Shown here in pieces: positions 33,165 through 59,642 of a stretch of 64,000 bases of DNA; position 1 is the first letter of the stretch, and every line of letters begins with the position of its first letter. The translations under genes were made by a program, and so were the position numbers. Under the pieces are notes generated by a model, which saw nothing but the letters and a program-made list of their open reading frames with translations, had not been told where the DNA came from and did not search any database. The stretch is from contig NC_043014.1 of assembly GCF_006345805.1 (NCBI RefSeq), forward strand, positions 10,664,001 through 10,728,000, given 5' to 3'. This stretch comes from Octopus sinensis (taxonomy: Eukaryota).

Positions 33165-33511
33165 TGAACCGTAAAAATTAATACAGAGAGTTGCTTATTT
33201 TCAAAAAAGAAAGAAAAAAGAAATATAACATGTGACTTCATTGACCGAGGTTACCGTGGTATTTTCCGTAGGCTTTTCTTTCCACGGGTAAACCTCACCT
33301 GTCCTCCCCTTTACACTTCATATTGACATTTTTGTGATTACGATCCCTATTGATCAACTTTTTTTCCTCTCCCCCCCCCTTTTTTTTTAATCCTCCCCTT
33401 TTTTTTGTCCTCTTTCTTTCCTTTTACGATCCCTTTTTTTACCCCCAAAAGAAAAGCTCTACCTTGTAATTTGTTCTGTCTGTGTGCAGCCCTGTGTGGC
33501 TAATAAAGAAA
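33165..33511 (+). mobile_element. L1/Tx1-like 3' UTR fragment inserted in (ATCT)n
   Basis: Pyrimidine-rich UTR ending TTGTAAT..AGCCCTGTGTGGCTAATAAAGAAA, with (ATCT)n on both sides. Confidence 0.5.
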
Positions 33512-33513
33512 CA

Positions 33514-33565
<52 letters not shown>

Positions 33566-33654
33566 AATATATATATATATATATATATTTGTCTGTCTCT
33601 GAGAAAAAAATGACTATGATAAGACCAAGAAAATTATAGACTGTCTAATTTATA

Positions 33655-33698
<44 letters not shown>

Positions 33699-34631
33699 TG
33701 CATGCGAAAATAAATTTATGAAACAGGAATTCTAAATGATGTCTATCGTATGTAAAAGCGCATCAAACAAGAATATAGATACATTCAACGTCTAATATAC
33801 GCATGTTTGCACATAGATAAGCATGCATGTGAATCCATGCATAAAAATGTGTTCTGCATGGTTGCATACATGAAATGGAAAACACCGCATACGAACACAT
33901 ACATAAGTCCATATATCTGTGTGTATGCATGCTATCTCACACATATAAGCCAATAGATCTGTGTGTATGCATACTATCTCACACACACATACATTTACAC
34001 ACACACACACACATACATACATACACACATACACTCGGACTATTCCATTCAAAGAGAGGAACACGGCCGTTGCTTTCCGAATGGGAATCGATCAGTAATT
34101 TTAGTAAGTAGTAAACGACAGCGCGTGAGGCAAGGCATTCACCGAAGTACAACAAATAATTACCATATAAAGAACACAATAAATACAGCAACAACAACGA
34201 TAACAACAACACCAACAACAAGCAATCGCCATATTTGGAGTTGGTGACGAACGGATCTTTCTAGAGAAGTCACGTGTTCTTGTTACCGTTCACGCGGTAA
34301 ATCAGTGGTGAAATGTGTTACTATATAATCTTTCTATTATTGAAATTACTCCCCTGTCTGGATATCGATGTATATTTATATCGACACAGACCTGATTGAC
34401 TAAAACTGTCAACAGCTAACGTGAAACATGCAGTTTACATTATTCAATAATGACAGGTAGAGACAGACATCAGCTAATTCTATTTGAATTTTCAAGAACA
34501 TCTTTGCATTAAACTCACGTGTTCTTTACGTAGAACGCAGTTATACTTTATCGATTCTGTACGTTCTTTCTTTTTTTTTTGACGATAAATTTTTGGCTTC
34601 ATATTACAGAATATTCTATTTTTATTTTACA

Positions 34632-34662
<31 letters not shown>

Positions 34663-34979
34663 TTTTTTTTTTTATTTATTTATTTATTACTTTTTATGCA
34701 AAATATATATTTTTTGAGTGGTTTAACATTTAATGCACTCATACCTGTATGGATGCAGAAATCTCCATTTCTATATAAATATATACATATATATGTATAT
34801 TTATGTATTTAATCTATATTATCTATATAATATATACATAAATATATTCTGCAAAAAATATATACTTGTGTGTGTGCCTGTGTGTTTAGCAAACCTCTAT
34901 GAAAATATAATGCACATCATACAGATGCTAATGTATATGTGCGTATGTATGTAATGCAAGTATTTATATATGTATATAT

Positions 34980-35380
34980 ATAGGAGTGGCTGTGTGGTAA
35001 GTAGTTTGCTTACCAACCACATGGTTCCGGGTTCAGTCCCACTGCGTGGAACCTTGGGTAGGTGTCTTCTACTATAGCCTCGGGCCGACCAAAGCCTTGT
35101 GAGTGAATTTGGTTGACGGAAACTGAAAGAAGCCCATCGTACATATGTATATGTGTGTGTGTGTGTGTATGTTTTTGTGTCTGTGTTTGTCCCCCTAACA
35201 TCGCTCGACAACGGATGCTGGTGTGTTTGCGTCCCCGTAAGTTAGCGGTTCGGCAAAAGAGACCGATAGAATCAGTACTAGGCTTACAAAGAATAAATCC
35301 TGGGGTCGATTTGCTCGACTAAAGACGGTGCTCCAGCATGGCCACAGTCAAACGACTGAAACAAGTAAATGAGTAAAAGA
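34980..35380 (+). mobile_element. CORE/V-like SINE, near full length
   Basis: A box TGGCTGTGTGG, B-box-like GGTTCAGTCCC, GAGTAAAAG tail. Confidence 0.88.
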
Positions 35381-35659
35381 ATATATATGCATGTATCTAT
35401 GTATGTATGTATGAGTGTGTGTCTAAAACATTTGCATGTTTGTGTTTTAATGTATCAATATGTATTTGACATACAGGTGCAACAATCAAAGGGTTCACCA
35501 TTTTAAATTAGGGAAATATGACAGAAATTCAACTGCAGCGATTGCAATTAAATGATTGTTGTCAGTATTCGAACCTGGATCACTAATTCAGTATGTTACT
35601 ACATAAAACCTATTCGCCAGCACGCTCAAACTTATGTAAATATATATATGCATATCCAG

Positions 35660-36055
35660 ACATATGTGTGTGCATGTATGTATGTATATACGTATGTATG
35701 TATGTATGTATGTATGTATGTATGTATGTATGTATGTATGTATGAATGTATGTATGTATGTTTGTATGTATGTATATATGTATGTATGTATGTATGTATG
35801 CATGTATGTATGTTTGTGTGTATGTATGTATACGTGCTTGTATGTATGTATGTATGTATGTATTTATGTATGTATTCTTGTATGTATCTATGTATGTATG
35901 TTTGTGTGTATGTTTGTATGTATGTACGTATATGTGCTTGATTGTATGTATGTATATGTGCTTATATGTATGTAGGTATGTATGTATGCTTGTATGTATG
36001 CATGTATGTATGTACATGAATGTGTGTGTGTGTGCGTGTGTGTGTGTGTGTGTGT
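35660..36055 (+). repeat. (TATG)n/(TG)n microsatellite
   Basis: Read directly from the sequence. Confidence 0.95.
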
Positions 36056-36496
36056 TCCTACATAATTTAATAACGAATTGCGCATTATTTAAAACAGACA
36101 TTCAAGTCCACGCCTCCAATATGAATGTACTTTTGGATATATGCATTATGTGTAATTATGTAAGCATACATATGCACACACTAGCACGAACCCATGCACA
36201 TACACACACAAATATATATGCATGCGTGTGTGTGTGAAAATATTCATATATTTATGTATGTATGTATTTTATGTGTGTATTTGTGTACACATGTGAAGCT
36301 ATCATTATGTCCATACACACATACACACACATGCGTGTACACACACATGCATACACACACACATACACGCATACATGTACACACACATGCATGTTCACAG
36401 ATACACACACGCACGTGCATGTATTTGTTGTATGCAAAACATTTGAAATGTAAAATATACCTTTTTATTAAACATGCGCAGTTGTAGTTGTGCAGA

Positions 36497-37048
36497 AGCA
36501 GGCGGAGCTGTGCAGGCGCAGGCGTGGCTGTGCATGCACAGGCGTGGCTGTGCATGCGCAGGCGTAGCTGTGCATGTGCAAGTATGGCTGTATAGCCGCA
36601 GGCGTAGCTGTGCAGATACAGGCGTAGCTGTGCAGGCGCGGGCGTGGCTGTGCAAGTGCAGGCATGGTTGTGCAACCGCAGGCGTGGCTGTACAGGCGCA
36701 GGGGTGGCTGTGCAAGTGCAGGCATGGTTGTGCAGCCGCAGGCGTGGCTGTGCAGATACAGGCGTGGCTGCGCAGGTGCAGGTGTGGCTGTGCAAGTGCA
36801 GGCTTGCTTGGGCGGAAGCAGGCGTGGCTGTGCAGGCGCAGGCGTGGCTGTGCAGGCGTGGCTGTGCAGGCTCAGGCGTGACTGTGCAGGCTCAGGCGTG
36901 GCTGTGCAGGCGCAGGCGTGGCTGTGCAGGCGCAGGCGTGGCTGTGCAGGCGCAGGTGTGGCTGTGCAGGCTCAGGCGTGGCTGTGCAGGTGCAGACGTA
37001 GTTGTGCATGCGCAGGTTTGACTATGCAGGTACAGACGTGGCTGTGCG
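36497..37048 (+). repeat. 20-bp minisatellite GGCGCAGGCGTGGCTGTGCA (about 27 units), continuous with a SINE body (37030-37360)
   Basis: The unit equals the SINE 5' end GGCGCAGG(A/C)GTGGCTGTG; the last unit runs into CACATGGTTCTGGGTTCAGTCCCACTGCG. Confidence 0.85.
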
Positions 37049-37409
37049 GTTAAAAGCTTGTTGTCAATCACATGGTTCTGGGTTCAGTCCCACTGCGTGG
37101 TATCCGGGGCAGCTATCTTCTATAGCCTCGGTCCCACCAAAGACTTGGGAGTGGATTTGGTAGGCAGAAACTGCTAGAAGCCTGCCTTATATACATTTCT
37201 GTATACATGTGTCTCTGTGTCTGTATTTCCTCCCCACCATCACCCACTGATTGACAAACAGTGTTGGTATGTTTAGTGAGAGGAAATCGCTCGATAAAAA
37301 TTCTTCAAGGCGTTGCCCCAGCTTGGCAGCGGTCTCAAAACTGAAACAAGTAAAAGTTAAAGAATTCGACTGTATCTTCGTAGTATATAAAAGAATGGAC
37401 AAAGTGGGT

Positions 37410-37558
37410 ATAGGCGCAGGAGTAGCTTGCTTACCAACTATTTGGCCCCGGGTTCAGTCCCACTGCGGGCACGTTGGGCAAGTTCTTCTTCTATAGCCTC
37501 AGGCCGACCAACGTCTGAGAGTGAATTTGGTAGACGGAAACTGAAAGAAGCCCGTCGT

Positions 37559-37600
<42 letters not shown>

Positions 37601-37970
37601 ATATATATTATCACGTGAGCACGTGACCGACCAGGCTATCAGATGTTGCTACACATCGCTGGTCACAATGCGCTTCACATTGTTTTAGCCTTCAAATGAC
37701 GCCACCCCGCTGGCTAACAGAAGAAAGAGTGAGAGAAAGTTGTGGCGAAAGTGTACAGTAGGGATCGCACCACCCCCTGCCAGGGCCTCCTGAGGCTTTA
37801 GGTGTTTTCGCTCAATAAACACTCACAACGCCCGGTCTGGGAATCGAAACCTCGATCCTACGATCGCGAATCTGCTGCGATTGTAAGGCCATTGCGCCTT
37901 CATATATATATATATTGTTGTATTTAGGAATGGTCATTTTGCCAGTTTAGCCAATAATATTATATATATA

Positions 37971-38001
<31 letters not shown>

Positions 38002-38230
38002 ATATATTTGTGTGTCTGTGTTTGTCCCCCTACCATCGATTGACAGACCGATGCTGGTGTGTTTACGTCCCCGTATCCTAGCGGTTCGGGAAAGAGGATG
38101 ATAGAATAAGTTCTAGGCTTACAAAGATTAAGTCCTGCGGTCGATTTTTTCGACTAAAAAGCAGTACTCCAGCATGGCCGCAGTCAAATGACATAAACAA
38201 GTAAATGAGTAAACAAGTTAAAGAGTAAAA
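37410..38230 (+). mobile_element. CORE/V-like SINE interrupted in its (TA)n by an antisense tail-B SINE (37610-37901)
   Basis: Head 37410-37560, nested SINE on the minus strand, 3' half 38010-38230. Confidence 0.8.
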
Positions 38231-38470
38231 GTCGTTTGTCCGCAGGTTTTATCCTTCCATTTGTGTCCACGGAGAGATTAATAGATTACAACTATTTTAA
38301 AGTTTATGCAAGCTAGGATTCAGTTGACAGGTCACTTTAACCTCAACCGTTACAGTGCATTTGGTCATAATGTGAATTGTGTTTATTCGCTGTGCTCAGT
38401 ACACTGTTTGAGAGTAGTTTAAAGCTGCCGTGTTAATTTTTCCTGCACATAAACGCCAGTTGTGTAAGTA

Positions 38471-39135
38471 CACAGACATGCAGGAAGTAAATAGACACCT
38501 TTAATTTTCAAAATTTTGTATTTGATATCAATTGGTTGAAGGAGAGGTTTTTTTCTAGCCGCTTGTCCATAATACCCAAGCTTATGCAGATATGTAACAC
38601 ACGTTGTTGGACTAACTTCTAGCTGTTTTGCAATGTCAGAAGCCTTCGAACGGGGTTCGTTTTCCACAATTCCCTTCAAACAGCGAAGCTTCCATTGCGG
38701 GGGCCCAGGTCGGCCGGGACGAGAATCTGTTGATTCTTTTCCTTGGCTTTTGAATTGCACTATAATTCTATTAAAGTGTAACCTCTCGAAAGAGCTGTTC
38801 TTCACTCCTGCTCCAGAGCGTCGGCTGCGGGGTCATTCAGAAGTGTAACCTCTCGAAAGAGCTGTTCTTCACTCCTGCTCCAGAGCGTCGGCTGCGGGGT
38901 CATTCCGAAAAGCTCTACCTGCGACGATTTCATCTCAATCGAAGGAGAGGAGCTTTCTCCGTCCGGGTTGCGGATCCGTGGAACAAGCTGCCAGACGAGA
39001 TGGTGAAGATGCCGACGACCGCTTTGTTCAAAGCCTCCCTGGACCTCAAGTGGCCTGAACTCTTTACATGAACACCACCCTGTACTTAACTCCATGTCCC
39101 CCTACATGGCCTTGCTATTTGCTTTTGAGCCAAAT

Positions 39136-39167
<32 letters not shown>

Positions 39168-39429
39168 AGTAGCAAGATGAATTTGTAGATTTTCGTTGCT
39201 TAAGACCAGCCTCAGACTGCCCAACAATACGACCTCTTTGAAAATCTGACAGTTCTGCTGAATTTTTTGTGCGAGGCATAGTTACTCTTCGCAAATGCTT
39301 AATACAATGGCACCTGGAATGAAAAAGAATAATTACATTGTAAATTCTACACCGCTGAAAACACATTAAGACGCTTAGATCAGAAATTTTGAAAATTAAA
39401 GGTGTCTATTTACTTCCTGTATGTCTGTT
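38471..39429 (-). mobile_element. Internally deleted Tc1-like transposon
   Basis: TIRs of about 45 bp (CACAGACATGCAGGAAGTAAATAGACACCTTTAATTTTC) with TA flanks; MPRTKNSAELSDFQRGRIVG and SRPGRP...ARKKPLL paired/HTH motifs; no DDE domain. Confidence 0.88.
38774..39166 (+). mobile_element. CR1-clade LINE 3' end with (TAAC)n tail, nested in the Tc1 element
   Basis: LRGHSEKL..RRGAFSVRVADPWNKLPDEMV..FKASLD motif; 67-bp duplication at the 5' end. Confidence 0.88.
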
Positions 39430-39443
39430 TATATACATATATA

Positions 39444-39491
<48 letters not shown>

Positions 39492-39792
39492 CGTGTGTAT
39501 ATGTTCGTGTGTCTGTGTTTATTCCCCCAACATCGCTTGACAACCGATGCTGGTGTGTTTACATCCCCGTAACTTAGCGGTTCGGCAAAATGGAACGATA
39601 GAATAAGTACTAGGCTTACAAAGAATAAGTCCCGGGGTCGATTTGCTCGACTAAAAGGCAGTGCTCCAGCATGGCCACAGTCAAATGACTCAAACAAGTA
39701 AAAGATATGAATGTATGTATTTATGAATTTTTTATGTAGTGAGATAAAAAAAACCATGGTTGTATAGATATTAGAGCATTTATAGATAGAAG

Positions 39793-39847
39793 GGCTTACA
39801 GCTGTTTCTAGAATATCAATTAATAATAATATCCTTTCATCGGAGAC
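39793..39847 (-). ncRNA. Hammerhead-like motif (U4C)
   Basis: Minus strand: gtct CCGATGA a aggatat..atattct a GAAAC agct GTA agcc. Confidence 0.55.
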
Positions 39848-39917
39848 AGTGTGAGAGGAAAAGTTAAATCATAGTTAGTTTCGATGTATGCATGTATTTA
39901 TGTGTGTGTGTGTGTGT

Positions 39918-39961
<44 letters not shown>

Positions 39962-40869
39962 AATATGGTTGGACATTTTAGGTATATTTCTTTTAACTAG
40001 CTACCTGCCCTGAGGCAAGACTGGAAAGAAAATTAAAATACTAAAACCCTCGTTACCATGGTTTATATGACGATTTGTCTCCCTTATAAATTATACAGTT
40101 ACATTCTTTGTGAAACATCATTTGAACTAAAACGGTTGATACATAACATTTTGATTTAGCAAAAGTGTATCATTGATACTGGATATGCAAACTTTTCATA
40201 TTGGATCCGTCAATGTTTTCTTTCTCCTGTATACCCTAACTACTTGCATGTCAAGAGAGCAGTTTACTTCCGTAGCAATATCGGACCGGTTGTGCATAAT
40301 TTCGCTGTGGTTATTCCATTGAACATGCAGCTGTGATGTATTCGTTTTATTTTGCTTTCTCATTGATGGTGTTATTCCAGATTATATAGTCGTGCCTCGA
40401 GGACATTCTCACATTTGCTTATTAAAAATGCTATTTCTTCATATCAACTTTCAATAGGTTTTCAGGATTTTGACATGTTTGTTTGTTTTTGTTTTTTGTT
40501 TTTTTGTTTTGTTATTTTTTTTTTCTCATGATGGCGTATCTTCTAGAGCGATTTTTGGCGAAGAATTTATTCATTCTTTTATTTTGTTTTGCTAAAACTA
40601 CGTTAATTTGTTTGCTTGCTGAGCTTTGAAATCTTCTGGAATATGGTTATTTTAAAAAATTTGCTACGATTCTTATTATTCTTTATTTGATAAACAACGT
40701 ATTGACTGCATTAGATTTCATAAAAATATATAAAATCTAGCAAATATTTTCCCCTTAGAACAAACATTTTATCCTGAATTAGCAGGAGTAACCTAGATCA
40801 AGAGACTTACCTATGTTTTATTTTAGCCATTGCGAGCAGTTAGTAATGTTCCGAATGTCAAGCTTAGGT

Positions 40870-41098
40870 GAGAGACGTTTTGGCACGGCAGTTTTGGCAC
40901 CGCCAATTTGGCGTCGCTGATTCAACGTTGATGGATTTGACATCAGACGTTTTAATGTTTCTCGCTTTCTCCCTATCTTTTTCTCTCCCTCTCTCTTTCT
41001 TCCTCTCCTCTCTCTATGTTAGTGAGAATATTATTGTTTATGCATATGAGAAGGACTGTGCTTATGTCAGTCATATTCAATTTATAGCTGGTAATGTA

Positions 41099-41150
<52 letters not shown>

Positions 41151-41365
41151 GTTCTCCCTCTCATAACCTCACTCTCACCGTCTCAGCCCCTCTCTCTCTC
41201 CTTCCTCTCAACTCTCGGCCCTCTCACTCTCTGTATGTACATATTTCTCGCGCACGCATGTGTTTGCCGCCAGTGTTACAAAGTTCTAACACCAAAACGA
41301 GGTAAATCTCCAACCAGCCATGCCGAATCTCCAGCGCCAAAACGGCTGCGCCCATTTGTCTCATT
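40870..41365. mobile_element. MITE-like element with imperfect TIRs
   Basis: GAGACGTTTTGGCAC... / ...GCGCCAAAACGG..TTGTCTC. Confidence 0.5.
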
Positions 41366-41789
41366 CTACACAAAAGTTCTTTCTAAATAATTCAGCCATA
41401 TTCCAGTTGAGTAATTCACTGCTATTTCAAATCCTTGTTAGAAAGGTTTATTTCCAGTACTTATATTATTTCGAAGGCGGCGAGCAGGCACAATTGCCAG
41501 CACGCCAGTCAAAACGCATAGCGGCATTTCGTCCGTCTTTGCATTCCGAGTTCAAATTCCACCGAGGCCGACTTTACCTTTCATCCTTTCGGGAGCGATA
41601 AAATAGATACCAGCTGAGTATTAGGATCGATCTAATTGACTAGGCCCTTCCCCTTAAATTTGCTGGCCTTGTGTCAAAATTTGAACCCATTATTATATTA
41701 TTTCGGACACGTTATAATCTATCGTGCATCTGATATGTTAACATGATTTGAGAGTTCAGTTATTCGTTTGGCCATGAATTGACCATCCT

Positions 41790-42298
41790 TTCCAAATTCC
41801 GCCGAGGTCGACTTTGCCTTCCATCCTTTCGGGGTCGATTAAATAAGTACCGGTTACGCACTGGGGTCGATATAATCGACTCAATCCGTTTGTCTGTCCT
41901 TATTTGTTCCCCTCTGTGTGTAGCCCCTTGTGAGCAATAAAGAAATAAGAAACGTTAGCATGCCGGGCGAAATGCTTAGCGGTATTTCGTCTGCCGCTAC
42001 GTTCTGAGTTCAAATACCGCCGAGGTCGACTTTGCCTTTCATCCTTTCGGGGTCGATTAAATAAGTACCAGTTACGCACAGGGGTCGATATAATCGACTT
42101 AATCCGTGTGTCTGTCCTTGTTTGCCCCCTCTATGTTTAGCCCCTTGTGGGTAGTAAAGAAATAGGTATTTCATCTGCCGTTACGTTCTGAGTTCAAATT
42201 CGCCGAAGTCGATTTTGCCTTTCGTCTTTCGGGGTCGATCTAATCGACTGGCCTCCTCCCCAAAAATTTCGGGCCTTGTACCTAGAGTAAAGAAGAAT
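41790..42298 (+). mobile_element. SINE array: two young-tail units followed by an old-tail unit
   Basis: Junctions GAAATA|AGAAACGTTAGC (about 41947) and GAAATA|GGTATTTC (about 42164). Confidence 0.85.
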
Positions 42299-42553
42299 AT
42301 AACCTGTCTTTATATGTATATTTATATTTATACGTAGGTGCATTATAAGTTCAAATCGATGGGCTGGCAGAATCATTAGCGCTTCGGACAAAATGCTTGT
42401 CGTCACTTTTTACGTTCTGCGTTCAAATTTCAACAAGTATTTATTTTATTGCCCCCGAAACGATAAAGACTTGAACTCAAAATATAAGGACGAAAGAAAT
42501 ATTACTAACCATATTGCCCGGCGTTGTAACCATTTTGCCATATCGCCACCTCA

Positions 42554-42590
<37 letters not shown>

Positions 42591-42595
<5 letters not shown>

Positions 42596-43058
42596 GATGG
42601 GCTACAGCAAATATTCTGCTCAATACCACAGATTTGCTTGTCAGTTGTTTGACCTTAACCAGTTGACCATGTCCCTTAGTGGCTGACACTATGTGCATCT
42701 CTGATCACGAGCAGAAGTAGTGGGGGAGCATCATAGCCATGTGTTGAGAAGGATTCTTTGGGGTTTGAATAATTCACCTCTGGAAACATGGGTGGTTCTT
42801 TCAACATCCTTAAACAACCCTTATTCAGGGACCTTTTGAGCGGGATGGGTTACTCGATCTGAAGAAAATTCTAACTGGGCTCCACCTGCAAGGTCATGTG
42901 CTGTTTATCTTGATATGAGATCACCATGTCGCGCACATATGGTTGTGATGCATGTGCCTGGTGTACCCTTATCAGACGGGTAGTCATGATGGGTATACTG
43001 GGCTTCGTATATTTTACCCCAGTGTCACTTTGATGGCATGCTCTGCTCGCTCACTCAA
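42591..43058 (+). mobile_element. 5'-truncated non-LTR 3' UTR element ending in (AAT)n
   Basis: Shares its 3' end CTCACTCAATAATAAT with the longer copy at 43702-44246. Confidence 0.7.
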
Positions 43059-43294
43059 TAATAATAATAATAATAGTCCTTTCCACTAAAGGCACAAGGC
43101 CTGGAGTTTGGTAGAGAGGGATAGTCGATTACATCGACCCCAGTACTCAGCTGGTACTTATTTTATCGATCCTGAAAGGATAAAAGGCAAAGTCGACCTC
43201 GGCGGAATTTGAACTCAGAACGTAAAGACGGATGAAATGCTGTAAAGCATATCTTCCGGCGAGCTAACGATTCTGTCATCTCGCTACCTTAGTA

Positions 43295-43354
<60 letters not shown>

Positions 43355-43559
43355 GTAATAATAATAATCCTTTCTACTAAAGGCGCAAGGCCTAAAACTT
43401 GGAGTGGAGAGGACTAGGCGATTACGTCGACCCCATTATTTCACTGGTACCTAATTTATCGATCGCGAAAGGATGAATTTGAACTCAGAACGTAAAGACG
43501 AACGAAATGACGCTAAGCATTTCACCTGGCGTGCTAACGATTCTGCCAGCTCACCACCT

Positions 43560-43590
<31 letters not shown>

Positions 43591-43611
43591 TAATAATAAA
43601 ATAATAATAAC

Positions 43612-43645
<34 letters not shown>

Positions 43646-43648
43646 TAA

Positions 43649-43701
<53 letters not shown>

Positions 43702-43703
<2 letters not shown>

Positions 43704-44244
43704 GTACCAGGCAGTGGCTCTCATGGCTTCTGATCTTAACTGATTGGAAGTGTTATCATGTACATTGTTTTGTCTTGGTATAAAAGATGGGCTACAGCAA
43801 ATATTCTGCTCAATACCACAGATTTGCTTGTCAGTTGTTTGACCTTAACCAGTTGAGCATGTCCTTAGTGGCTGACGATATGTGCATCTCTGATCACGAG
43901 CAGAAGTAGTGGGGGAGCATCATAGCCATGTGTTGAGAGGGATTCTTGGGGTTTGAATAGTTCACCTCTGGAAACATGGGTGGTTCTTTCAACATCCTTA
44001 AACAACCCTTATTCAGGGACCTTTTGAGCGGGATGGGCTACTCAACCTGAAGAAAATTCTAACTGGGCCCCACCTGCAAGGTCATGTGCTGTTTATCTTG
44101 ATATGAGATCACCATATCGCGCACATATGGTTGTGATGCATGTGCCTGGTGTACCTTTATCAGACGGGTAGTCATGATGGGTATATTGGGCTCCGTATAT
44201 TTTACCCCAGTGTCACTTTGATGGCATGAACTGCTCTCTCACTC

Positions 44245-48875: not shown

Positions 48876-48913
48876 TCTTTAACGTTTCGAGCCTACGCTC
48901 TTCAACAGAAAGA
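48876..48913 (-). ncRNA. A6U hammerhead-like motif
   Basis: Minus strand: tcttt CTGTTGA a gagcgtaggctc GAAAC GTT aaaga. Confidence 0.6.
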
Positions 48914-49786
48914 TACACAGAAAAGAAACACAGAAAGAAACAAGGAGACAAAAAAAATGCGTGCAGAGGCTAGCGAATCAACATGGCCATTATATATATA
49001 AGTATGCATACAATTATACACACATAAATACACACACACATACACTCATACATATATATATATATATCAATATATATATCTATAATGGAACAAAAACGTG
49101 GTAGATGACAATAAAATAATCAAACAGAGAGACAATACAAAGGCGTACAGAAGAAACAACAATTAGAAGGTCAGGCAAAAAAAGACGGATCATTCGTGGC
49201 CTTCTTTCCTCAGTCAAGTAACTAAAGTCCTTACTGTTTCGGGCAGTTACACTTGAGACAGTTCAACCTGGTTGCCCTCCACAAAAAAGTCTAAGCTAAG
49301 AGCATTAGAACTTTTTGTAAGAAAGCTAGCGAATGTGTACGGCAACAAAGACAAAAAATGGAGAACATCGTACACAATTACAAATACAAACAACAAGAAT
49401 ATAAAAACAGGTGTCTTTCGACTGAGAACGAATCAAATTGAGCTGGCGTGTATGAAGTGAAAGCCTAGAGGCAGGAACACAGATGGAAATAAGAGATTAT
49501 GGCTGGCCGGACAACGGTCAAGTGGAAGGAAGAGAGAGGGTAGGGGTCAGCGGGATTGAAGGATTAGAAAAAATCAGACAAATGGAAAGGTACACAAAAG
49601 GAAAGGTACACATACATACATAGATACATACATATGTGTATGTATGTATGACCGCAGCTTTCAAGCTGAAACTACTTTAAAAGTAATATATATGTCTGTC
49701 CGATGTCAGATGCCATGATAGATCGTTAGCTACTACACACATTTTTCTTCTCTCCTTGTTTCTCTCCTTGTTTTTTTTTCTGTGTA

Positions 49787-49824
49787 TCTTTCTGTCGAAG
49801 AGCGTAGGCTCGAAACGCAAAAGA
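49787..49824 (+). ncRNA. A6U hammerhead-like motif (triplet GCA)
   Basis: tcttt CTGTCGA a gagcgtaggctc GAAAC GCA aaaga. Confidence 0.5.
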
Positions 49825-49928
49825 CTTTTTCTATTCTTGAGCGCTATACTAATACATTTGTTTGTTTGTACACCACCTGCCTTCGTCTTTTGTTTATTTT
49901 CGTAAACTTTCCCTATATATATATATAA

Positions 49929-50280
49929 AGCAATAAGAAAATGGAGGAGAACAATAGGTGATTCATCAACTTTTAGACATTATATTATGTAAACTTATTT
50001 ATCTATTTACTAAACTGATAATTACAATAATATACATACATATAACATATTATTCTTTACATATAAGATATAAGATATAAGATATAAAATATAGCAATAT
50101 ATAAGGATATAATAATTACTTGTATCTTATATATCTTATATGTAAAGAATAATATGTTATATGTATGTATATTATTGTAATATTGTATTGTAATATGTAT
50201 GTATATTATTGTAAGTTTACATAATATAATGTCTAAAAGTTGATGAACCACCTATTGATCCCCTCCATTTTCTTATTGCT
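49929..50280. repeat. Fold-back element beside (TA)n
   Basis: AGCAATAAGAAAATGGAGG..CATCAACTTTTAGACATTATATTATGTAAACTT and its reverse complement. Confidence 0.8.
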
Positions 50281-50466
50281 CTATAAATTAATGGTAAAAT
50301 ATCTCTTTATCTTCACCCATTTAATACACTAGATAATGTAATTTCAATGCAAAAAAAACCCCACTTGTGTATTAATAATTGGGTATACTACCAGCAGTAT
50401 ATTGGATAGATATTATCCCTTAGTAGGATAAATCACAACCTCTAACTTTCTTGGAGTTATATATAT

Positions 50467-50860
50467 ACTCTTTACTCTTTTACTCTTTTAATTGTTTCAG
50501 TCATTTGACTGCGGCCACGCTGGAGCACCGCCTTTAGTCGAGCAAATCGACCCCAGGACTTATTCTTTGTAAGCCTAGTACTTTTTCTATCGGTCTCTTT
50601 TACCGAACCGCTAAGTTACGGGGACATGAACACACCAGCATCGGTTGTCAAGCGATGTTGGGAGGACAAACACACACACACATATATATATATACATATA
50701 CACGACAGGCTTCTTTCAGTTTCCGTCTACCAAATCCACTCACAAGGCTTTGGTCGGCCCGAAGCTATAGCAGAAGACACTTGCCGAAGGTGCCACGCAG
50801 TGGGACTGAACCCGGAACCATGTGGCTGGTAAGCAAGCTACATACCACACAGCCACTCAT
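50467..50860 (-). mobile_element. CORE/V-like SINE, near full length
   Basis: Same family as 34980. Confidence 0.88.
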
Positions 50861-50970
50861 ATATATATATATATATATATAAAGAGCAACTCATACTTGC
50901 CAGCGCCTTCATTTCGCATGACAAATATGAATGAAGGTGTATTAAATACCATACACGTTACATGTCTGAT

Positions 50971-51018
<48 letters not shown>

Positions 51019-51371
51019 ATTAACCATATACCCATCGAGAACAAGTGAACAGATGTCTAATGGCAATCGTGAGTCATCGCAGACGGGAAGAGTGGAAAAG
51101 AAGATAATATCACATTTCACGTTTCAGGAATTTTTAAGAATCGACGTGCCATTGCTTTCTTATGTTTTGTTTTTGCTTTCTGACTGCAGTAGGGTGGAAC
51201 AGCCGATGAGATATGATCTTTCGACAATATGCAACCTCAGAACAGTTGATTCTGGCAGAAATATGACTTCGACATACAGAGAAAAGTTTGAGTATGTATA
51301 TTAATTAATAAATTAATTTGGTATTCATTGGACCTCTTCATTTTGAAACTTTAAAATATTTGATATATATA

Positions 51372-51423
<52 letters not shown>

Positions 51424-51456
51424 GTATATATGTATATGTATGTATGTATATATATA

Positions 51457-51808
51457 ACAGACCCCTGCCTCAGTAAAGCTGGACTCAAGAGTCATCTTCG
51501 TAGTCATAAAGCGAGACAGATGAGTGACAACCTGGCTACTGGTGGTGGTGTTATACACCATACTAATCATATCTGTCAGTCATGTGGAAGAAGAGTGTAA
51601 TTCGGTGAGAGGACTTAAACGACATGCAAAGGTACATGAAGCCCAGCTACAACCACAGCCGGCTATTACCGTTAAAAGTTTTAGTTGCCAATTCTGTACA
51701 AGACATTGTAGATCTTTGGCTGGGCTAAAAAGTCACATTCGATCACAGCACCAGTAACAGTTAAGCTTCGTGCAATGGCCATACTCGATAACGAGGGTGC
51801 AGCCATAA
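51457..51808 (+). mobile_element. RTE-like LINE 3' end encoding C-terminal C2H2 fingers, in (TA)n
   Basis: RPCLSKAGLKSHLRSH / CQSCG-(fs)-ECNSVRGLKRHAKVH / CQFCTRHCRSLAGLKSHIRSQH*; 3' hairpin ATGGC..CTCG.TAACGAG..GCCAT. Confidence 0.65.
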
Positions 51809-52097
51809 TATATACATATATATATAATGAAGGCTAAAAAAAACACAAAGAGTTATAGGTAAATTTTACAAATATTTTGATAATTATATACATAATTATA
51901 ACAAAGGCTTGGCTATAAGCCTCGCCATGCGCTGGTAAAAAAGACGCCAAAAGACGCTATTACCACCTTCCCCACTTTAGAAGTAACTTCTAAACTGGAG
52001 TGAGACAGCATGTTCTTTGTCTATCTCCTTAACTTCTTGGAGATTTTAGGTATAATTATACTAATGTGTTTAATCTAATTAAATTCTATGTCTTTTT

Positions 52098-52186
52098 ATG
52101 CAGCTGAAGATTACACTGCATTTTAAATTGATGCAATGACTGCATTTTTCAATTAAATGGAGTTGCATGAAACGATCGTACGGCAT
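52098..52186 (+). ncRNA. Long-stem-II hammerhead ribozyme
   Basis: atgcag CTGAAGA ...GAAAC gatc GTA cggcat. The surrounding ~200 bp is shared with 45600-45810. Confidence 0.6.
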
Positions 52187-52235
52187 TACTTCTGGATATC
52201 CTTGTTGCTTATTTTGATATATACATAACATACAT

Positions 52236-52296
<61 letters not shown>

Positions 52297-52301
52297 ACAC
52301 C

Positions 52302-52343
<42 letters not shown>

Positions 52344-52902
52344 TTTAACAATTAAGGATAATCTCTTAATAAGGGATCTTAACAAAAAGATTATCGGGTA
52401 GTTAGCGTGAAAACCTCATAAAGAAAAGAATTCGAAAATAATTTTTTTCTTTTGAACAAATTAATTATATCTATATTGTATAGAGGGCATTATTACACAT
52501 AAATGCCTCACACTAAGAGGGACAAAGTCATTACTACCAAAATTTCACTAATCATACCCAAATGCAGTTTTTCAAAGCAAGACATTTAAAAAAATGAATT
52601 TAGTTCTGTATCACCACCGTGATTTCACATTCAAACTTACGTCTTATGATCATCAGCAGAACTGATTCTGAACACATCATAAATAAACTACCAACCTTAC
52701 GTAGCGAAGACGAACAGACAACTGCTCACTCCGGCCAAGCACATGAATGTTTATAAATCACATATCCGTAAATGGCGGGCTTTTTACGAACTGCATGTCG
52801 GGTAATGAAAAGTATTTCGGAATAAGTTTAACAATTAAGGATAATCTCTTAATAAGGGATCTTAACAAGAAATTATCGGGTAGTTAGCGTGAAAACCTCA
52901 TA

Positions 52903-53002
52903 NNNNNNNNNNNNNNNNNNNNNNNNNNNNNNNNNNNNNNNNNNNNNNNNNNNNNNNNNNNNNNNNNNNNNNNNNNNNNNNNNNNNNNNNNNNNNNNNNN
53001 NN
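52903..53002. other. Assembly gap (100 N)
   Basis: Run of N. Confidence 1.
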
Positions 53003-53108
53003 TTAGCTCCATGAGGCCATCGCCTTAAGTTAGCTATTTGATACACAAACTGTATCCATAAAACCTTTGAACAAGGGAGGTCAGTCGCTCCACACTACTT
53101 GGCCGGCA

Positions 53109-53150
53109 GCTACAGACGCGTTTCGGGGTATTGCCCCTTTTCAATGCAGC
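53109..53150 (-). ncRNA. Minimal hammerhead with compensatory U3-A8 core pair
   Basis: Minus strand: gctgca TTGAAAA gggg caata cccc GAAAC gc GTC tgtagc. Confidence 0.75.
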
Positions 53151-53324
53151 GTAGCCAAACCAGTATATGCGAGAGTCTTCATTCAGTTTCCTCTACCAAA
53201 CCCACTTACAAGGCTTTGGGACCATACGGTTAGGAAGTAAGCTTCTTACCACACAGCACGCCGGCTATATAAGTGTGTGTGGTGTATATATATATAAATA
53301 TGTATATATAAATAAATATTTGTA

Positions 53325-53409
<85 letters not shown>

Positions 53410-53806
53410 CATATATATTTATACACATATATATAATAATATATAAATATATATATTACATATATACATTGTATATATTTATACATACACACATATAAAC
53501 ATAGAGAGTGAGATTGAGATGAATATAGATATATAAGTATACATGCGTACACATGCACATATATATGGATATACATATACATATACATGTATTTGTGTGT
53601 GTATATATATATGTGTGTGTACACATATTTGTACATGTAGCTACGTAAGCGTGTACGTAAGTATTATGCATCTACGAATGTATATATATTGTTTTCTTTG
53701 TATACACTAATATAACATTATGATGAATATTCTGGGTATTGAGTTCCCCTTATCTTGTTTGTAAAGTAAATATTGTGTGTATTCATGGATGTGTATATAT
53801 ACACAA

Positions 53807-53842
<36 letters not shown>

Positions 53843-54406
53843 GTGTATGTGTGTGTGTGTGTGGTGTGCGTGTGTGTATGTGCGTGTATATATATATATA
53901 TATATATATTTGTATGTATGCTTTTATGTGCGTATGTGTACTGAGTGGAGAGAGATTGTGTGGGAGACAGTGTTTGGAAAAAAAGCAAAATATATTTAGT
54001 GATGTATCTTTCATTGACGTCATCAAGAGGTTAGAACAAAGGACATTGTCTATTGATAAATAAGTATTTCATTGAATTACTTGGCGATAAATATAGATAT
54101 CTCATGCTTTAATCAATTACCACTGTCCTTATGTCAGTACCAGTTCTACACCGTCATACACAGCGAATTGAACCTTCCTTTTGACCTCACTTCAACATTG
54201 TACCTTATATCGTCATATACTTGTTTTGATCCCAGACAAAGACCTATGGTTAAGAATTTCACTTCTCATTACACGGTTCCTGGTTCTATCACAATATGTG
54301 CGCGCCTCTGCAAGTATCTTCTACCATAGGCACATGTATGTTTAAGAAATTAGCTACGTCTTCATATTGTTACGAAGGAGAAATATTCTGATAACTATAA
54401 TTTTAA

Positions 54407-54972
54407 ATGTTGTGTCCGGGGAGAGTCATTTTCTTTTTGTGCCTTATAATATAATACACTCACCGGTAAAATTTCCACTTATTTCGTAATTAAAACTAGC
54501 AGTATCGCCCGGCGTTGCTCGGGTTTGTAAGGGAAATAACTATATAAGCATTTTAAGAGAGTTATAGCCAAAAAATAGCCAAAAAAATGCATTAAAATGG
54601 AAAAAAAAATTATGGTAATTTTTTTTTAAATCGTTGACTCATCGTAGACATTTTTAGAGAGTTACTTCCCTTATATAATAGCGAAAAAATGCATTAAAAT
54701 GGAAAAAAATTATGGTAAATTTTTTTAATCGTAGACTCATCGTAGACGCGCGCTAATACCCAGAAGGGCTCGATGTGAATCACGACTATAAGATACCCGG
54801 TTTTGGTTAAACTGCACCGCAAAATGTGGGAGTAGTTAGGAATCTAAATCGTAGGAGACAGACACACAACTTCACTTTTATATATAAAGATAAGGAAAAC
54901 GTGGAAATTTTACCGGTGAGTGTGTTACATTATAAGGCACAAAAACAAAATGACTCTCCCCAGACACAACAG
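54407..54972. mobile_element. Long-TIR MITE split by a Helitron (a single arm also at about 6272-6345)
   Basis: TGTTGTGTCCGGGGAGAGTCATTTT...CCGGTAAAATTTCCAC and its reverse complement at 54900-54972. Confidence 0.75.
54496..54890 (-). mobile_element. Non-autonomous Helitron
   Basis: TC...hairpin...CTAG between A and T; paralog of 4114-4483. Confidence 0.82.
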
Positions 54973-55232
54973 AATATGCTTCAACACACGAACTCCTATA
55001 AAAATCTTGCAAACCAAATCCAAAAACGAAATAATTTTAAATGGTCCTACTCGAAATCGAAATACTGTTCTCTAGTTTTACAAAAGAAAACGAATAGTGA
55101 ATCAGTAATTAATTCTATGAGAAATAATGTCCATTGATCACGTGACTGATTTAAACCATGCTGCGTGTTTTCTTTTCGCGCGCTTTCTCTGTAGGGTGAA
55201 CTATATAAACTAGTGATTGAACATGAGGTGGA

Positions 55233-55436
55233 GGATAATTTTTTACTTCATATTTTATTTTTATTTTATGTACCCCATGTCCCGTCTTGTAATGTCCCCC
55301 TCTTCGTGGCCCCTTAGTGGGTAATAAAGAAACAGGATAATTTTTTACTTCATATTTTATTTTTATTTTATGTACCCCATGTCCCGTCTTGTAATGTCCC
55401 CCTCTTCGTGGCCCCTTAGTGGGTAATAAAGAAACC
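55233..55436 (+). mobile_element. Two tandem ~100-bp 3' stubs of the ORF1-only element
   Basis: GGATAAT|TTTTTACTTCAT...GCCCCTTAGTGGGTAATAAAGAAAC, twice. Confidence 0.8.
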
Positions 55437-55459
55437 GGATAAAAATGTGAAAATTTGGA

Positions 55460-57209
55460 GGGTTCAGACGTGTTGTTTTTCTGAGCGAGTTATTTGGAGT
55501 TATTCAGGTGTGATTATTCTGGTGTGTTTGTTTCGAGTGAGGAGGTGGTGAGTTCGAGTTCTTTGGAGGACGTGGAATAATTTTTTTTTCCGGAAAATGC
55601 AAGAACAGACTTACGCGCGAGCGGCAGGCAGAGGCCTGGTTGCCGGTGAGCTGGAAATGGAGGAGGTGGTGGTTGAACAGAGGACCCTACAGAAGTATTT
55701 CGACAGTTTAAAGAGGGAGGGTGACTGCGTAAGAGTCACACCGTCCGAGGAGGAGGAAGGAAAGCAGTGCAGAGAAGCGTACTATAACGTACAGGACGTG
55801 GTGTGTGGAGTCGAAAAAGATTGCAAGTAGCGGAAATGGAAGAAGAGTAGAAAGGTTGTCTGAAGGAAATTGAGGGAGAACCCACATTTTTCAAAAGAGG
55901 AAAGAAGTATGCCACGGTAGTGGTATATTTTGAAACAGAAAATGAGGCCAAAAAGAACGCAACAAGACTTTTGAAATCGGATAAGTGGACTCTTGCTACC
56001 AAGTTACTGCGGAAGGAGAGCAGGAGGATGAGAATCAATAGAATCTCACCCGAATTTAATATGGAAAGGTTGCTGGCAGCAGTGTGTTTAACTGCAAGGA
56101 TGATGTGGAGGTACTGAAGGTGGAGAGGAAAGAAGTCAGCGGAGGTGAAATGGTGGGGATATACGGTGCAGGTTCTCGCGCCAATTACCGTGCGAGACTG
56201 TACAACATCCCGGAGGAGCTGGTCTACCCTGACGAGACACGACTCCGAGTTGTGGTTAGAGGGAAGACCCCCAATTTGCTACAATTGTAAATCAAGGGGC
56301 CACATGAAGGATGTGTGCCCGCGGAGAAAAAACTAAAGCACCGGAGGTTGTGATGGAGGACGCGTGTGTGGAGGGAGGCGAACGGAGCGAAGAGAGGAGG
56401 AGGAAATACGAATGGAGGAGCGGTTAAGTGAGGGAAGAACGAGAGAGGCACAGAAGAAGAAAAGACGGAAGACAGGAAGAGATCAAGGGTGGAATCACCA
56501 CCGAAGGATAAAAAAAAAAGAAAGAAAAAATAAAGCAAGATAGCAGAAGAGAGAGAAGACAAAGAACAGGAAGTAAAAGAGAAGGTGAGAGAGCGGCCAA
56601 GGACAGAGTTTGAAAAAGAATGGGAGACCAGAGTGAACGAGCAATTGGAATCGTGCAGATATGGAAGAAGGCCTACAGGAAAAAACTTGAAGGCGGTTGT
56701 AATGTATATCAAGAATACAGAAGTGGAGAAGGACTTGTAGGTAAGAAAGGGTTGGTCAGGGTGAAGGTGAACCCAAAGCTGTATGGTGACGACGTGAAAG
56801 CGTCATTATAGACAAAGAGGACATACATAAAACTAAAAAAAGATGTTTAATGGTATGCACATAACGCACTATGTGCGGTATGATAAATTGCCAGATGTTA
56901 TAGAGCATACGGACCTGTTGGATATATGACGGACGAGCGTCTAATGTAAAAGAATCAGAATTATAAGATTTAAAGTTGTATTTTGAATATATGTAATGTT
57001 GACATGTAGAATTGTAAAATTATTGTAAATGTAAAATGTAATGTATAATTGTATTTTAAACGGACTGCGAGTTGGGGGCTCGTAAGCCGTTCCATCTCAT
57101 TACATCTAATTCATTTTTTACTTCATATTTTTTTTTACTCTATGTACCCCATGTCCCGTCTTGTAATGTCCCCCTCTTCGTGGCCCCTTAGTGGGTAATA
57201 AAAAAACAG
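55460..57209 (+). mobile_element. ORF1-only (HAL1-like) non-autonomous L1/Tx1-type retroelement, copy 1
   Basis: GT-rich 5' UTR, one gag-like ORF, about 280-bp 3' UTR, no EN/RT; flanked by GGA(T/C)AA.AATGTGAAAATTTGGA. Confidence 0.7.
55597..56929 (+). pseudogene. Frameshifted ORF1/gag-like protein: RRM-like region, CCHC zinc knuckle, charged tail
   Basis: MQEQTYARAA...; GKKYATVVVYFETENEA; VEGRPPICYNCKSRGHMKDVCP (CX2CX4HX4C at about 56277-56318); stitched from several track ORFs. Confidence 0.75.
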
Positions 57210-57232
57210 GACAACAATGTGAAAATTTGGAG

Positions 57233-59009
57233 AGTTCAGACGTGTTATTTTTCTGAGCGAGTTGATTGGATTTATTCAGGTGTGATTATTCTGGTGTGTT
57301 TATTTCAAGTGAAGAGGTGGTGAGTTCGAATTCGTTGGAGGACGTGGAATAATTTTTTTTTCCGGAAAATGCAAGAACAGACTTACGCGCGAGCGGCAGG
57401 CAGAGGCCTGGTTGCCGGTGAGCTGGAGATGGAGGAGGTGGTGGTCGAACAGAAGACCCTACAGAAGTATTTCGACACAGTCTAAAGAGGGAGGGTGACT
57501 GCGTAAGAGTCACACCGTCCGAGGAGGAGGAGGAAAAGCGGAAAGCAGTGCAGAGAAGCGTACTATAACGTACAGGACGTGGTGTGTGGAGAGTCGAAAA
57601 AAGAGATTGAAGTAGCGGAAATGGAAGAAGTAGAAAGGTGCTGAAGGAAATTGAGGGGAGAGAACCCACATTTTTCAAAAGAGGAAAGAAGTATGCCACG
57701 GTAGTGGGTATATTTTGAACAGAAAAATGAGGCAAAAAAGAACGCAACAAGACTTTTGAAATCGGATAAGTGGACTTTGCTACCAAGTTACTGCGGAAGG
57801 AGAGCAGTGAGGATGAGAATCAATAGAATCTCACCCGAATTTAATATGGAAAGGTTGCTGGCAGCAGTGCTGTTTAACTGCAAGGATGATGTGGAAGTAC
57901 TGAAGGTGGAGAAGTCAGCGGAGGTGAAATGGTGGGGATATACGGTTGCAGGTTCTCGCGCACATTACCGTGCGAGACCTGTACAACATCCCGGAGGAGC
58001 TGGTCTACCCTGACGAGACACGGCTCCGAGTTGTGGTAGAGGGGAAGACCCCCAATTTGCTACAATTGTAAGTCGAGGGGCCACAGAAGAATGTGTGCCC
58101 GCGAGAAAAAGCAAAAGCACCAGTGGTTGTGATGGAGGAGTGTAGAGATGCGTGTGTGGAGTGGAGGAGGCGAAAGCGGAGGAAATACGAATGGAGGAGC
58201 CAGTTGGATGAGGAAGAAGAACGAGTGAGTGCAGAAGAAGAAAAGACAGAAGACAGGAAGAGATCAAGGTGGAATCACCACCGAAAGATCAAAAAAAAGA
58301 AAAAAAAATTAAAAGCAAGATAGCAGAAGAGAGAGAAGAGACAAAGAACAGGAAGTAAAAAGAGGAAGGCGAGAGAGCGGCCAAGGACACAGAGTTGAAA
58401 AGAATGGGGAGACAAGAGTGAACGAGCAATTGGAATCATGCAAATATGGAAGAAGGCCTACAGGAAAAAACTTGAAGGCCAGTTGTAATGTATATCAAGA
58501 ATACAGAAGTGGAGAGAGACTTGTAGGTAAGAAAGGGTTGGTCGGGGTGAAGGTGAACCCAAAGCTGTATGGTGACGACGTGAAAGGCGTCATCATATAG
58601 ACAAAGAGACATATATAAAATTAAAAAAGATGTTTAATGCTATGCACATAACGCATTATGTGCGGTGATGATCATGATAAATTGCCAGATGTTATAGAGC
58701 AAACGGACCTGTTGGATTAAATGACGGACGAGCGTCTAATATAAAAGAATTAGAATTAATTGTAAAATTTAAAGTTGTATTTTGAATATATGTAATATGG
58801 ACATGTAGAAGTGTAAAAAATTATTGTAACTGTAAAATTGTATGTATAATTGTATTTTAAACGGAACTGCGAGTTGGGGGTTCGTAAGCCGTTCCATCTC
58901 ATTACATCTAATCTCATTTTACTTCATATTTTATTTTATTTTATGTACCCCATGTCTCGTCTTGTAATGTCCCCCTCTTCGTGGCCCCTTAGTGGGTAAT
59001 AAAGAAACA
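57233..59009 (+). mobile_element. ORF1-only element, copy 2 (ORF about 57369-58720, frameshifted)
   Basis: Colinear, high-identity paralog of copy 1 with different indels. Confidence 0.72.
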
Positions 59010-59031
59010 GGATAATAATGTGAACATTTGG

Positions 59032-59642
59032 AAGGCGGCGAGCTGGCAGAACCGTTAGCATGCCGTGCGAAATGTGTAGCGGTATTTCGTCTGCGTTACG
59101 TTGTGAGTTCAAATTCCGCCGAGGTCGACTTTGCCTTTCATCCTTTCGGGGTCGATAAATTAAGTACCAGTTACGAACTGGGGTCGATGTCATCGACTTA
59201 ATCCCTTTGTCTGTACTTGCTTGTCCCCTCTGTGTTTAGCCCCTTGTGGGTAATAAAGAAATAGGTATTTCGTCCTGCCGTTACGTTCTGAGTTCAAATT
59301 CCGCCGAGGTCGACTTTGCCTTTCATCTTTTCGGAGTAGATCAATTAAGTACAATTACGTACAGTTCGCACTGGGGTCGATGTCATCGACTTAATCCCTT
59401 TGTCTGTCCTGCTTGTCCCCTCTGTGTTAGCCCCTTGTGGGTAATAGAAAGAAATAGGTATTTCGTCTGCCTCGTTACGTTCTGAGTTCAAATTCCGCCG
59501 AGGTCGACTTTGCCTTTCATCCTTTCGGGGTCGATAAATTAAGTACCAGTTACGTACTGGGGTCGATGTCATCGACTTAATCCCTTTGTCTGTCCTTGTT
59601 TGTCCCCTCTATGTTTAGCCCCTTGTGGGCAATAAAGAAATA
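59032..59642 (+). mobile_element. Three-unit SINE array directly after the shared target motif
   Basis: One head; units restart at GGTATTTCG; array-specific variants GATGTCATCGAC and ATCCCTTTGTC. Confidence 0.9.

Follow-up and report, generated by a model that had tools for sequence, protein, structure and literature searches.

Within 64,000 nucleotides of the Octopus sinensis genome (NCBI RefSeq assembly GCF_006345805.1, contig NC_043014.1, positions 10,664,001 to 10,728,000 of the forward strand; hereafter ‘the window’, in whose own numbering coordinates are given) a short interspersed element (SINE), an element that has the first but not the second open reading frame (ORF1, ORF2) of a long interspersed element (LINE), and a truncated LINE at 33.5 kb finish with a common end signal of ~45 bases, which recurs in three autonomous LINE families here called A, B and C. 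We think it probable, though well short of assured, that this end is an RNA signal for the reverse transcriptases (RTs) of the A/B/C lineage, and that the particles of C-type elements, by which we mean family C together with the ORF1-only element, would be steered to start sites of RNA polymerase II (Pol II).

With its shared tail the octopus provides an animal example among the few L1-clade elements that seemingly read a specific RNA end, with a bearing on whether mammalian poly(A) recognition is derived. The spacing of insertions from TATA boxes matters more. If the steering is true, it would be a target-primed Pol II counterpart of what is done by TRE5-A and Ty3, and it would explain in concrete terms why ORF1-only LINEs retain ORF1; the insertions would mark promoters in the genome that are active in the germ line, and a natural promoter-seeking insertion system would be at hand.

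The shared 3' end and its carriers

Inspection of the sequence of the window located the three termini where the original prediction had placed them:

33155..33513, plus strand: 5'-truncated copy of LINE family A, comprising the last ORF2 codons (stop TGA at 33165-33167) and the 3' untranslated region (UTR), with (TATC)n on both sides
33462-33513, plus strand: terminus match of family A in this 33.5-kb element
33488..33511, plus strand: family A terminus, with AGCC/GGCT stem, 6-nt loop and AATAAAGAAA
55332, 55434, 57206 and 59007, plus strand: ends of the ORF1-only element
59261 and 59640, plus strand: SINE ends, with more SINE ends at 14.5-15.5, 17.9-18.1 and 41.9 kb

Chance resemblance between the termini is ruled out by shuffling. 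The pattern GCCC-N4-7-GGSY-AATAAAGAAA matches 11 times in the window and not once in 100 shuffles. When the last 50 nt are compared, all pairs of tails (SINE, ORF1-only, A, B and C) give z of 4.5-11, with 0 of 300 shuffles as high, and on removal of AATAAAGAAA the three tail pairs of the window still give z of 2.7-4.9 (0-5 of 500 shuffles). Also borne out is the claim that poly(A) is absent, since all 320 termini counted lack a run of more than five As in the 20 nt after the signal; one copy, at the edge of locus L146, shows A13. Copies stop 4-6 nt past the canonical AATAAA that is present within the shared motif.

Autonomous LINEs carrying this terminus do exist, in the form of three L1-type families with endonuclease (EN), RT and zinc finger. 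Other copies of family A extend upstream of the part seen at 33.5 kb into an ORF2 whose N-terminal part has EN and RT, to a full length of ~6.5 kb (L042/L043/L046), and there are 1857 first-look candidates in the 2.72-Gb genome. Families B and C were both found via the flanks of ORF1-only arrays. Family B (5.2 kb, 2202 candidates; 327 exact matches to its terminus, B-tailed ORF1-only elements included) has an open ORF2 of 1133 aa with PF03372, PF00078 and PF13966 (EN, RT and zf-RVT), and family C (671 candidates) has an open EN-RT frame whose C-terminal part is supported by tblastn. The RT of C is 79-80% and that of A 63-64% identical to the RT of family B; in a quick tree A, B, C and a protein of Argonauta hians, a close named relative by RT, form one group (SH-aLRT 99), and the best relative of solved structure for ORF2 is human L1 ORF2p (E 2e-65, versus 1e-25 for R2). 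The tree contains no named Tx1 sequence, none having occurred among the 120 homologs listed, the 10 clusters or the atlas look-ups. The Tx1 label, which we presume to apply to the three families, draws on traits usual in that clade, of which a Gag-like ORF1 with CCHC knuckle and a target preference (family A, C-type) are present here.

Not supported in the form given is the proposal that one RT mobilises all three elements. At least three LINE families carry variants of the tail, and the 33.5-kb element is a piece of a LINE that has a microsatellite target of its own ((TATC)n follows 18 of 20 family A copies) and that matches the ORF1-only tail most poorly, the latter being identical to the tail of C at 43/51 positions, of B at 38/52 and of A at 35/52. 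For the SINE tail, matches to A, B and C amount to 36-42 of 50-54 columns (38/53 to A, 40/52 to C). It is likely, to judge from these ends, that one LINE lineage and not one enzyme moves the SINE and the ORF1-only element.

The ORF1-only element is present in the window as:

55240..55435, plus strand: two ~95-nt 5'-truncated ORF1-only 3' ends, head to tail
55436..57207, plus strand: unit 1, ORF1 ATG at 55597, CCHC knuckle, frameshifted
57208..59008, plus strand: unit 2, ATG at 57369, frameshifted, ending GGCCCCTTAGTGGGT-AATAAAGAAA

The frameshifts in these copies may be partly assembly error; ORF1 is intact in other copies (442-454 aa). The family is dispersed: its 78 matches fall at 39 loci, and arrays make up 18 of these loci. 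Its units of ~1.7-1.8 kb have one ORF of ~445 aa, lack ORF2 and show target duplications. Its ORF1 has a knuckle of the form CX2CX4HX4C and, as atlas neighbours, zf-CCHC and ZCCHC3-like proteins (0.91-0.93), no match being returned by a Pfam search, and the ratio of non-synonymous to synonymous substitution, 0.11-0.21 in 10 of 10 pairs, is that of purifying selection. Identity to the ORF1 proteins of families A, B and C is only 30-41%, and 30-34% in the comparison by which a simple deletion derivative of a present partner is rejected; the parent may be extinct or unsampled. That the tail was conserved while the ORF1 proteins diverged this far argues for a selected signal, and the tail is best read as kept or exchanged under selection, not as the leftover of a recent deletion. 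In 5 of the 11 ORF1-only units compared (two at L080 and one each at L075, L077 and L052) there are 85-219 A-to-G changes versus 1-18 G-to-A, with 0-2 of the former in the last 300-nt bin. These copies look like ADAR-edited RNA that was retrotransposed, which is consistent with an RNA intermediate.

C shares mixed head-to-tail arrays with the ORF1-only element, and B, C and several ORF1-only families alternate in such arrays; an LTR (long terminal repeat) or satellite origin is ruled out by single flanking duplications and 5' truncation.

Other SINEs of the window (23562-24244, 41474-41641, 43123-43561 and others) have positions 1-168 in common with the SINE considered here and differ in their tails, which implies tail exchange. 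At L261, L263, L264, L266, L289 and L322 there are older families with a GGGC form of the terminus, several of them then having similar AATTTCTT-like flanks, a further target type.

TATA spacing at C-type sites

The ORF1-only array of the window is preceded by two features:

55202..55209, plus strand: TATATAAA box, lying 30 bp before the edge of the target site of the array
55232..55239, plus strand: target/leader AGGATAAT, which recurs after units at 55334 and 59009, with variants at 55436 and 57208

We infer from this arrangement that the target/leader is the host's transcription start. To what extent do other C-type insertions share it? Among 86 C-type loci 24 collapsed into shared hosts and 30 lacked a duplication or 5' end that could be used. 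The other 32 were scored, a site being called TATA-positive where the consensus TATAWAWR, with at most one mismatch, starts at -35 to -26 from the duplication edge. On this basis 20 of the 32 are positive (9 exactly), versus a local upstream background of 9.1% (p 1e-13), and the box lies at -32 to -29 (mean -30.4, standard deviation 0.9). At SINE sites, represented by the 30 of 49 full SINE arrays that had a duplication, one of 30 is positive (Fisher p 4e-7 versus C-type). Single 5'-truncated copies, which are unable to be donors, have the box at 8 of 15 sites (p 2e-5), and a set drawn later from an exact-pattern listing has it at 5 of 9 (p 6e-4). Mirrored to the opposite side, the interval is positive at 0-2 of 30 sites, and exact matches number 9 forward versus 1 reverse. 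The target duplications, of 10-22 bp, have no common motif among the scored sites, so a sequence-specific target for C-type elements was rejected. Pol II start-site targeting, through ORF1p, is probably what this spacing reflects.

Relations between copies point in a similar direction. At the unrelated sites L018, L050, L061 and L073, daughters start at the first base of the donor duplication in host H1, which lies 29 bp after a TATA, and a daughter at L065 starts with the L018 duplication; with daughters starting where the donor was inserted, it is simplest to suppose that transcription of a donor sets out from its own point of insertion. C LINEs and ORF1-only elements share the same H1 site, and many copies lie in the hosts H1-H3.

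As for the hosts, Rfam returned from 10 downstream flanks only a 5S rRNA (L376:5511-5629, 70 bits), ~370 bp below host H5, and no hammerhead family; a regular expression gave one hammerhead-like string at H5. A ‘Penelope promoter’ for H1/H5 is thus no more than a guess. No cellular gene directly below a site was named in ORF scans of 29 flanks. Contigs from four presumed-RNA runs over L128 are repeat-dominated, and transcription starts are not readable in them. Host H2 (L133-L137, L142, L147, L148) is multi-copy, and 39-70 bp above the stacked leaders of B and C arrays it has three kinds of motif, an octamer-like ATTTGCAT, a CCAAT-like one and TATTTAAA. In the 5' flank of L049 there is a fragment of a Helitron-like helicase, 474 aa long, and the promoter region of H1 is duplicated there in inverted orientation. 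At L329/L330 and L366 (G000:C30:11.42 and 11.69 Mb) truncated C copies without duplication have a TATA ~28 bp above the 5' junction and lie 2-3 kb from histone H2A/H2B genes.

A proposed route of insertion and its competitors

In the scheme we favour, ORF2p would bind the hairpin plus AATAAAGAAA and start cDNA there on read-through RNA, with the consequence that no poly(A) would be copied. A few bases past the terminus would pair with the nicked DNA, and such pairing would give the GGTA bias of the SINE, the (TATC)n sites of family A and the homing of daughters into donor-like repeats. ORF1p made in cis would tether the particle to TATA-binding protein (TBP) or to the pre-initiation complex, which would put the first nick at about +1; the SINE, since it makes no ORF1p, would go unsteered. 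A copy placed at +1 would be transcribed from the host promoter with the host leader as its 5' end, and, as the target would be recreated, arrays would grow at the site.

Bases at the junctions are relevant to the pairing step. GGTA, the bases after the terminus in tandem SINE units, starts 11 of 30 SINE duplications (15 of 30 with register variants), family B junctions often start with ACATG-like bases, and family A lands in the same repeat that follows family A copies; together these suggest that read-through RNA pairs with the nicked strand. Pairing of this kind accounts for the homing and for the arrays; it does not account for the TATA spacing seen in single truncated copies.

A broader reading, which we put forward tentatively and, taken whole, lean slightly away from, is of an animal LINE lineage with base-precise targeting of Pol II starts, ORF1p docking, a captured promoter, traded machinery and target memory. 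ORF1p would dock on TBP or the pre-initiation complex with the nick at +1, and the element, promoterless itself, would be transcribed from the promoter so captured. ORF1-only parasites would retain ORF1 as a targeting device, the shared structured end would let sister enzymes, ORF1-only elements and the SINE trade machinery, and short read-through tags would carry target memory from donor to daughter. Reports of Tx1 elements near the 5' ends of other transposons may have the same basis.

Several observations weigh against the favoured scheme, and those on the RNA end can be taken with the alternatives they touch. The original prediction had a small stem-loop before the terminal signal, and a GCCC/GGGY hairpin is indeed the predicted fold in 4 of 6 termini; among 363 termini compared the stem is nearly fixed and the loop variable, with G-U changing to G-C. 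However, the hairpin is not more stable than shuffles (folding z -0.24 to -1.5, none significant), and covariation is weak: in the MAFFT register 96% of cells are paired, with three one-sided G-U to G-C changes and no double change, and the folded register adds at most one compensatory pair, a C-G to G-C swap between family A and the ORF1-only end. A structured RNA end is plausible on these comparisons. In addition, A, B and C come about equally close to the SINE tail, so that no single partner is picked out. Non-significant folding and weak covariation are what one would expect were the shared end an inherited 3' UTR, kept for processing at the canonical AATAAA it contains while relaxed enzymes read no structure. 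We regard this as rather unlikely, because copies stop so soon after AATAAA without poly(A), the similarity remains when that part is left aside, a polymerase III-type SINE acquired the same 60 nt, and a fixed stem accompanies a varying loop. Abundance, and a SINE tail about as close to A as to C, could be cited for family A as the single mobiliser of SINE and ORF1-only element. This is very improbable, being contradicted by the target sites, for one of 30 SINE sites and none of the ORF1-only sites is in a repeat like the (TATC)n of family A, and by the ORF1-only tail, whose match to A is well below that to C.

On the steering, 12 of the 32 scored C-type sites are without TATA at -35 to -26, counting all 30 unresolved loci as negatives gives 20/62, two of the 32 are on one host (L065/L251), and the -35 to -26 limits, though taken from the usual TATA position, were set after the first sites had been seen. 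CCAAT is upstream at 9 of 32 C-type sites, no higher than the 7 of 30 at SINE sites. On the reverse strand 15 of the 32 also match with at most one mismatch, TATA-like strings being partly self-complementary; as the motif is near-palindromic, reverse-strand TATA in the same interval is an invalid control. Family B encodes ORF1p, yet only 2 of 11 B-type sites are TATA-positive, so ORF1p alone is no predictor of targeting. Most family B loci are arrays in two multi-copy hosts and were uncounted; a family B histogram has a looser TATA spacing, -35 to -45, which is post hoc with n=11 and on which no claim is made. The difference between C-type and B-type sites would fit a property of ORF2p, and the main rival is that family C ORF2p reads TATA-like DNA directly ~30 bp upstream of the nick, in the way that R2 proteins read an upstream DNA motif, with no need of host factor or ORF1p. 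The tightness of the spacing and the fact that several TATA-positive sites are only putative promoters favour it as well. It is nevertheless unlikely in our estimation, if worth keeping in mind: the SINE, whose tail is no nearer to the other families than to C, has the box at a single site, daughters begin at the donor's insertion base, and promoter-looking sites lacking TATA are also hit (L074, GC-rich with TCAGTT, and L140, with CCAAT). Alternatively, there could be no promoter targeting at all, with pairing of read-through RNA the only guide, and the TATA spacing arising through transcription of only those copies that lie below promoters, followed by their homing into similar repeats. This would account for the GGTA bias, family A in (TATC)n, the ACATG-like B junctions and the copy numbers in H1-H3, but we give little credence to it because the box at -30 persists in single truncated copies whose sites are unrelated and whose duplications resemble no donor leader.

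Known systems and further features

In TRE5-A of Dictyostelium the C-module is a tested structured 3' signal (PMC3159450), and a required structured 3' end goes together with an ORF1-only derivative moved in trans and a cis-acting ORF1p that binds TFIIIB subunits in vitro (PMC3159450, PMC5006619). The TRE5-A.1/TRE5-A.2 pair is like the octopus elements in being an APE-RT-zinc-finger LINE with an ORF1-only derivative, and in a fixed insertion distance, there from a TBP-containing complex and here from TATA. TRE5-A lands ~50 bp upstream of tRNA genes (Pol III), is driven by a promoter of its own and ends in poly(A). The octopus elements, which have no poly(A) and seem to use the host promoter, are inserted in sense orientation ~30 bp downstream of TATA, at what looks like the Pol II +1. 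No insertion of the TRE5 type upstream of tRNA genes was seen, the octopus sites being downstream of TATA-like boxes, and no tRNA gene was found in the window or in the 10 downstream flanks scanned with Rfam. Tf1, an LTR element, uses an integrase to insert at or near transcription starts; we know of no base-precise insertion by it. Ty3 (PMC5006619) is alike in inserting at or near transcription starts and differs in being an integrase-using LTR element directed to Pol III.

Tx1-clade targets include microsatellites, small nuclear RNA genes and spots in other transposons, one being ~300 bp from Harbinger 5' ends, and Tx1L in Tx1D, Keno, Kibi/Koshi, Tx1-Mar and Tx1-9_AMi with SINEU make up a target-specific set with a SINE partner (PMC4494074). 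Microsatellite preference there is like that of family A, and the fixed transposon spots are like hosts H1-H3; the targets are described as sequence preferences and SINEU ends in poly(A) (PMC4494074), whereas in the octopus the one thing common to unrelated targets is the TATA spacing, and the tail is common to SINE and LINE. Stringent SINE/LINE pairs are known in the L2 clade (PMC4176376, in which ‘TX1’ is the name of a mutant and not of a clade), and L1-clade pairs in maize and Chlamydomonas (PMC3747384). These have a shared 3' tail with a small stem-loop; the octopus case differs in its animal L1/Tx1-type partner, in having no terminal simple repeat or poly(A), and in the presence of one tail across three LINE families with different targets. 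The contrast that had been drawn with poly(A)-driven mammalian L1 holds for the lack of poly(A), though it has precedents in the structure-dependent L1-clade elements TRE5-A and those of maize, and in the Chlamydomonas pairs. Head-to-tail arrays are also formed by HeT-A. Like HAL1 and Ag-Sponge it is an ORF1-only non-autonomous LINE (PMC5786205, PMC5753468); the octopus elements are set apart by several old lineages, an ORF1 diverged from present partners, and arrays dispersed over promoter-like sites. Neither a LINE that inserts at TATA+30 nor this octopus SINE/LINE pair was found described in the literature searched, which did not take in Repbase, subscription papers or supplements, and the accessible part of PMC9341512 has no description of Pol II start-site targeting by a LINE.

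The SINE, with a unit of ~231 nt, is present in the window in arrays:

59032..59642, plus strand: trimer, a full unit and two units from position ~49, in the 3' target/leader of the ORF1-only array
14316..15476, plus strand: hexamer, a full unit and five units from position ~49, within a single 14-bp target-site duplication (14301-14314 / 15477-15490)
17661..18261, plus strand: trimer with the shared tail
41793..42164, plus strand: dimer, the second unit from position ~18
6729..7353, minus strand: units with the shared tail

A- and B-box-like strings are discernible by eye in the SINE; its head had no tRNA match in ARAGORN or Rfam. It presumably resembles cephalopod repeats and may have a superfamily core of the Deu/Nin or CORE kind. 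It is probably the same as, or related to, the octopus tRNA-SINEs OK, OR1 and OR2 (Ohshima and Okada 1994, as cited in PMC4758252 and PMC4824008), for which no partner LINE is named in the accessible parts of the two citing papers. The accessible part of an O. vulgaris annotation has 13 recently active L1-Tx1 families and gives no targets.

Fifty-two of 133 SINE ends run directly into another unit, 41 of these starting at 49-51 and 11 at 16-21. SINEs and C-tailed elements alike insert into the SINE head at ~49 and ~16-18 (window 14316-15476, 59032-59642 and 41948; L180, L271, L272), and the SINE end can pair with the SINE's own position 51-56.

Some features lie beside these elements. Just upstream of the TATA region, at 54495-54893 of the window, a ~400-bp insertion with what we take to be Helentron/DINE-like ends splits another repeat. 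The start of L129 (G000:C4:53.97 Mb), below the L018 site, has an acidic frame that is presumably like the N-terminus of a piggyBac transposase. Adjoining family A copies at L047, ~1256-4333 (minus as oriented), is an intronless open frame of 1026 aa that by eye resembles a GAF-domain cyclic-nucleotide phosphodiesterase, and at 36395-37140 of the window there is an array of a 20-bp minisatellite.

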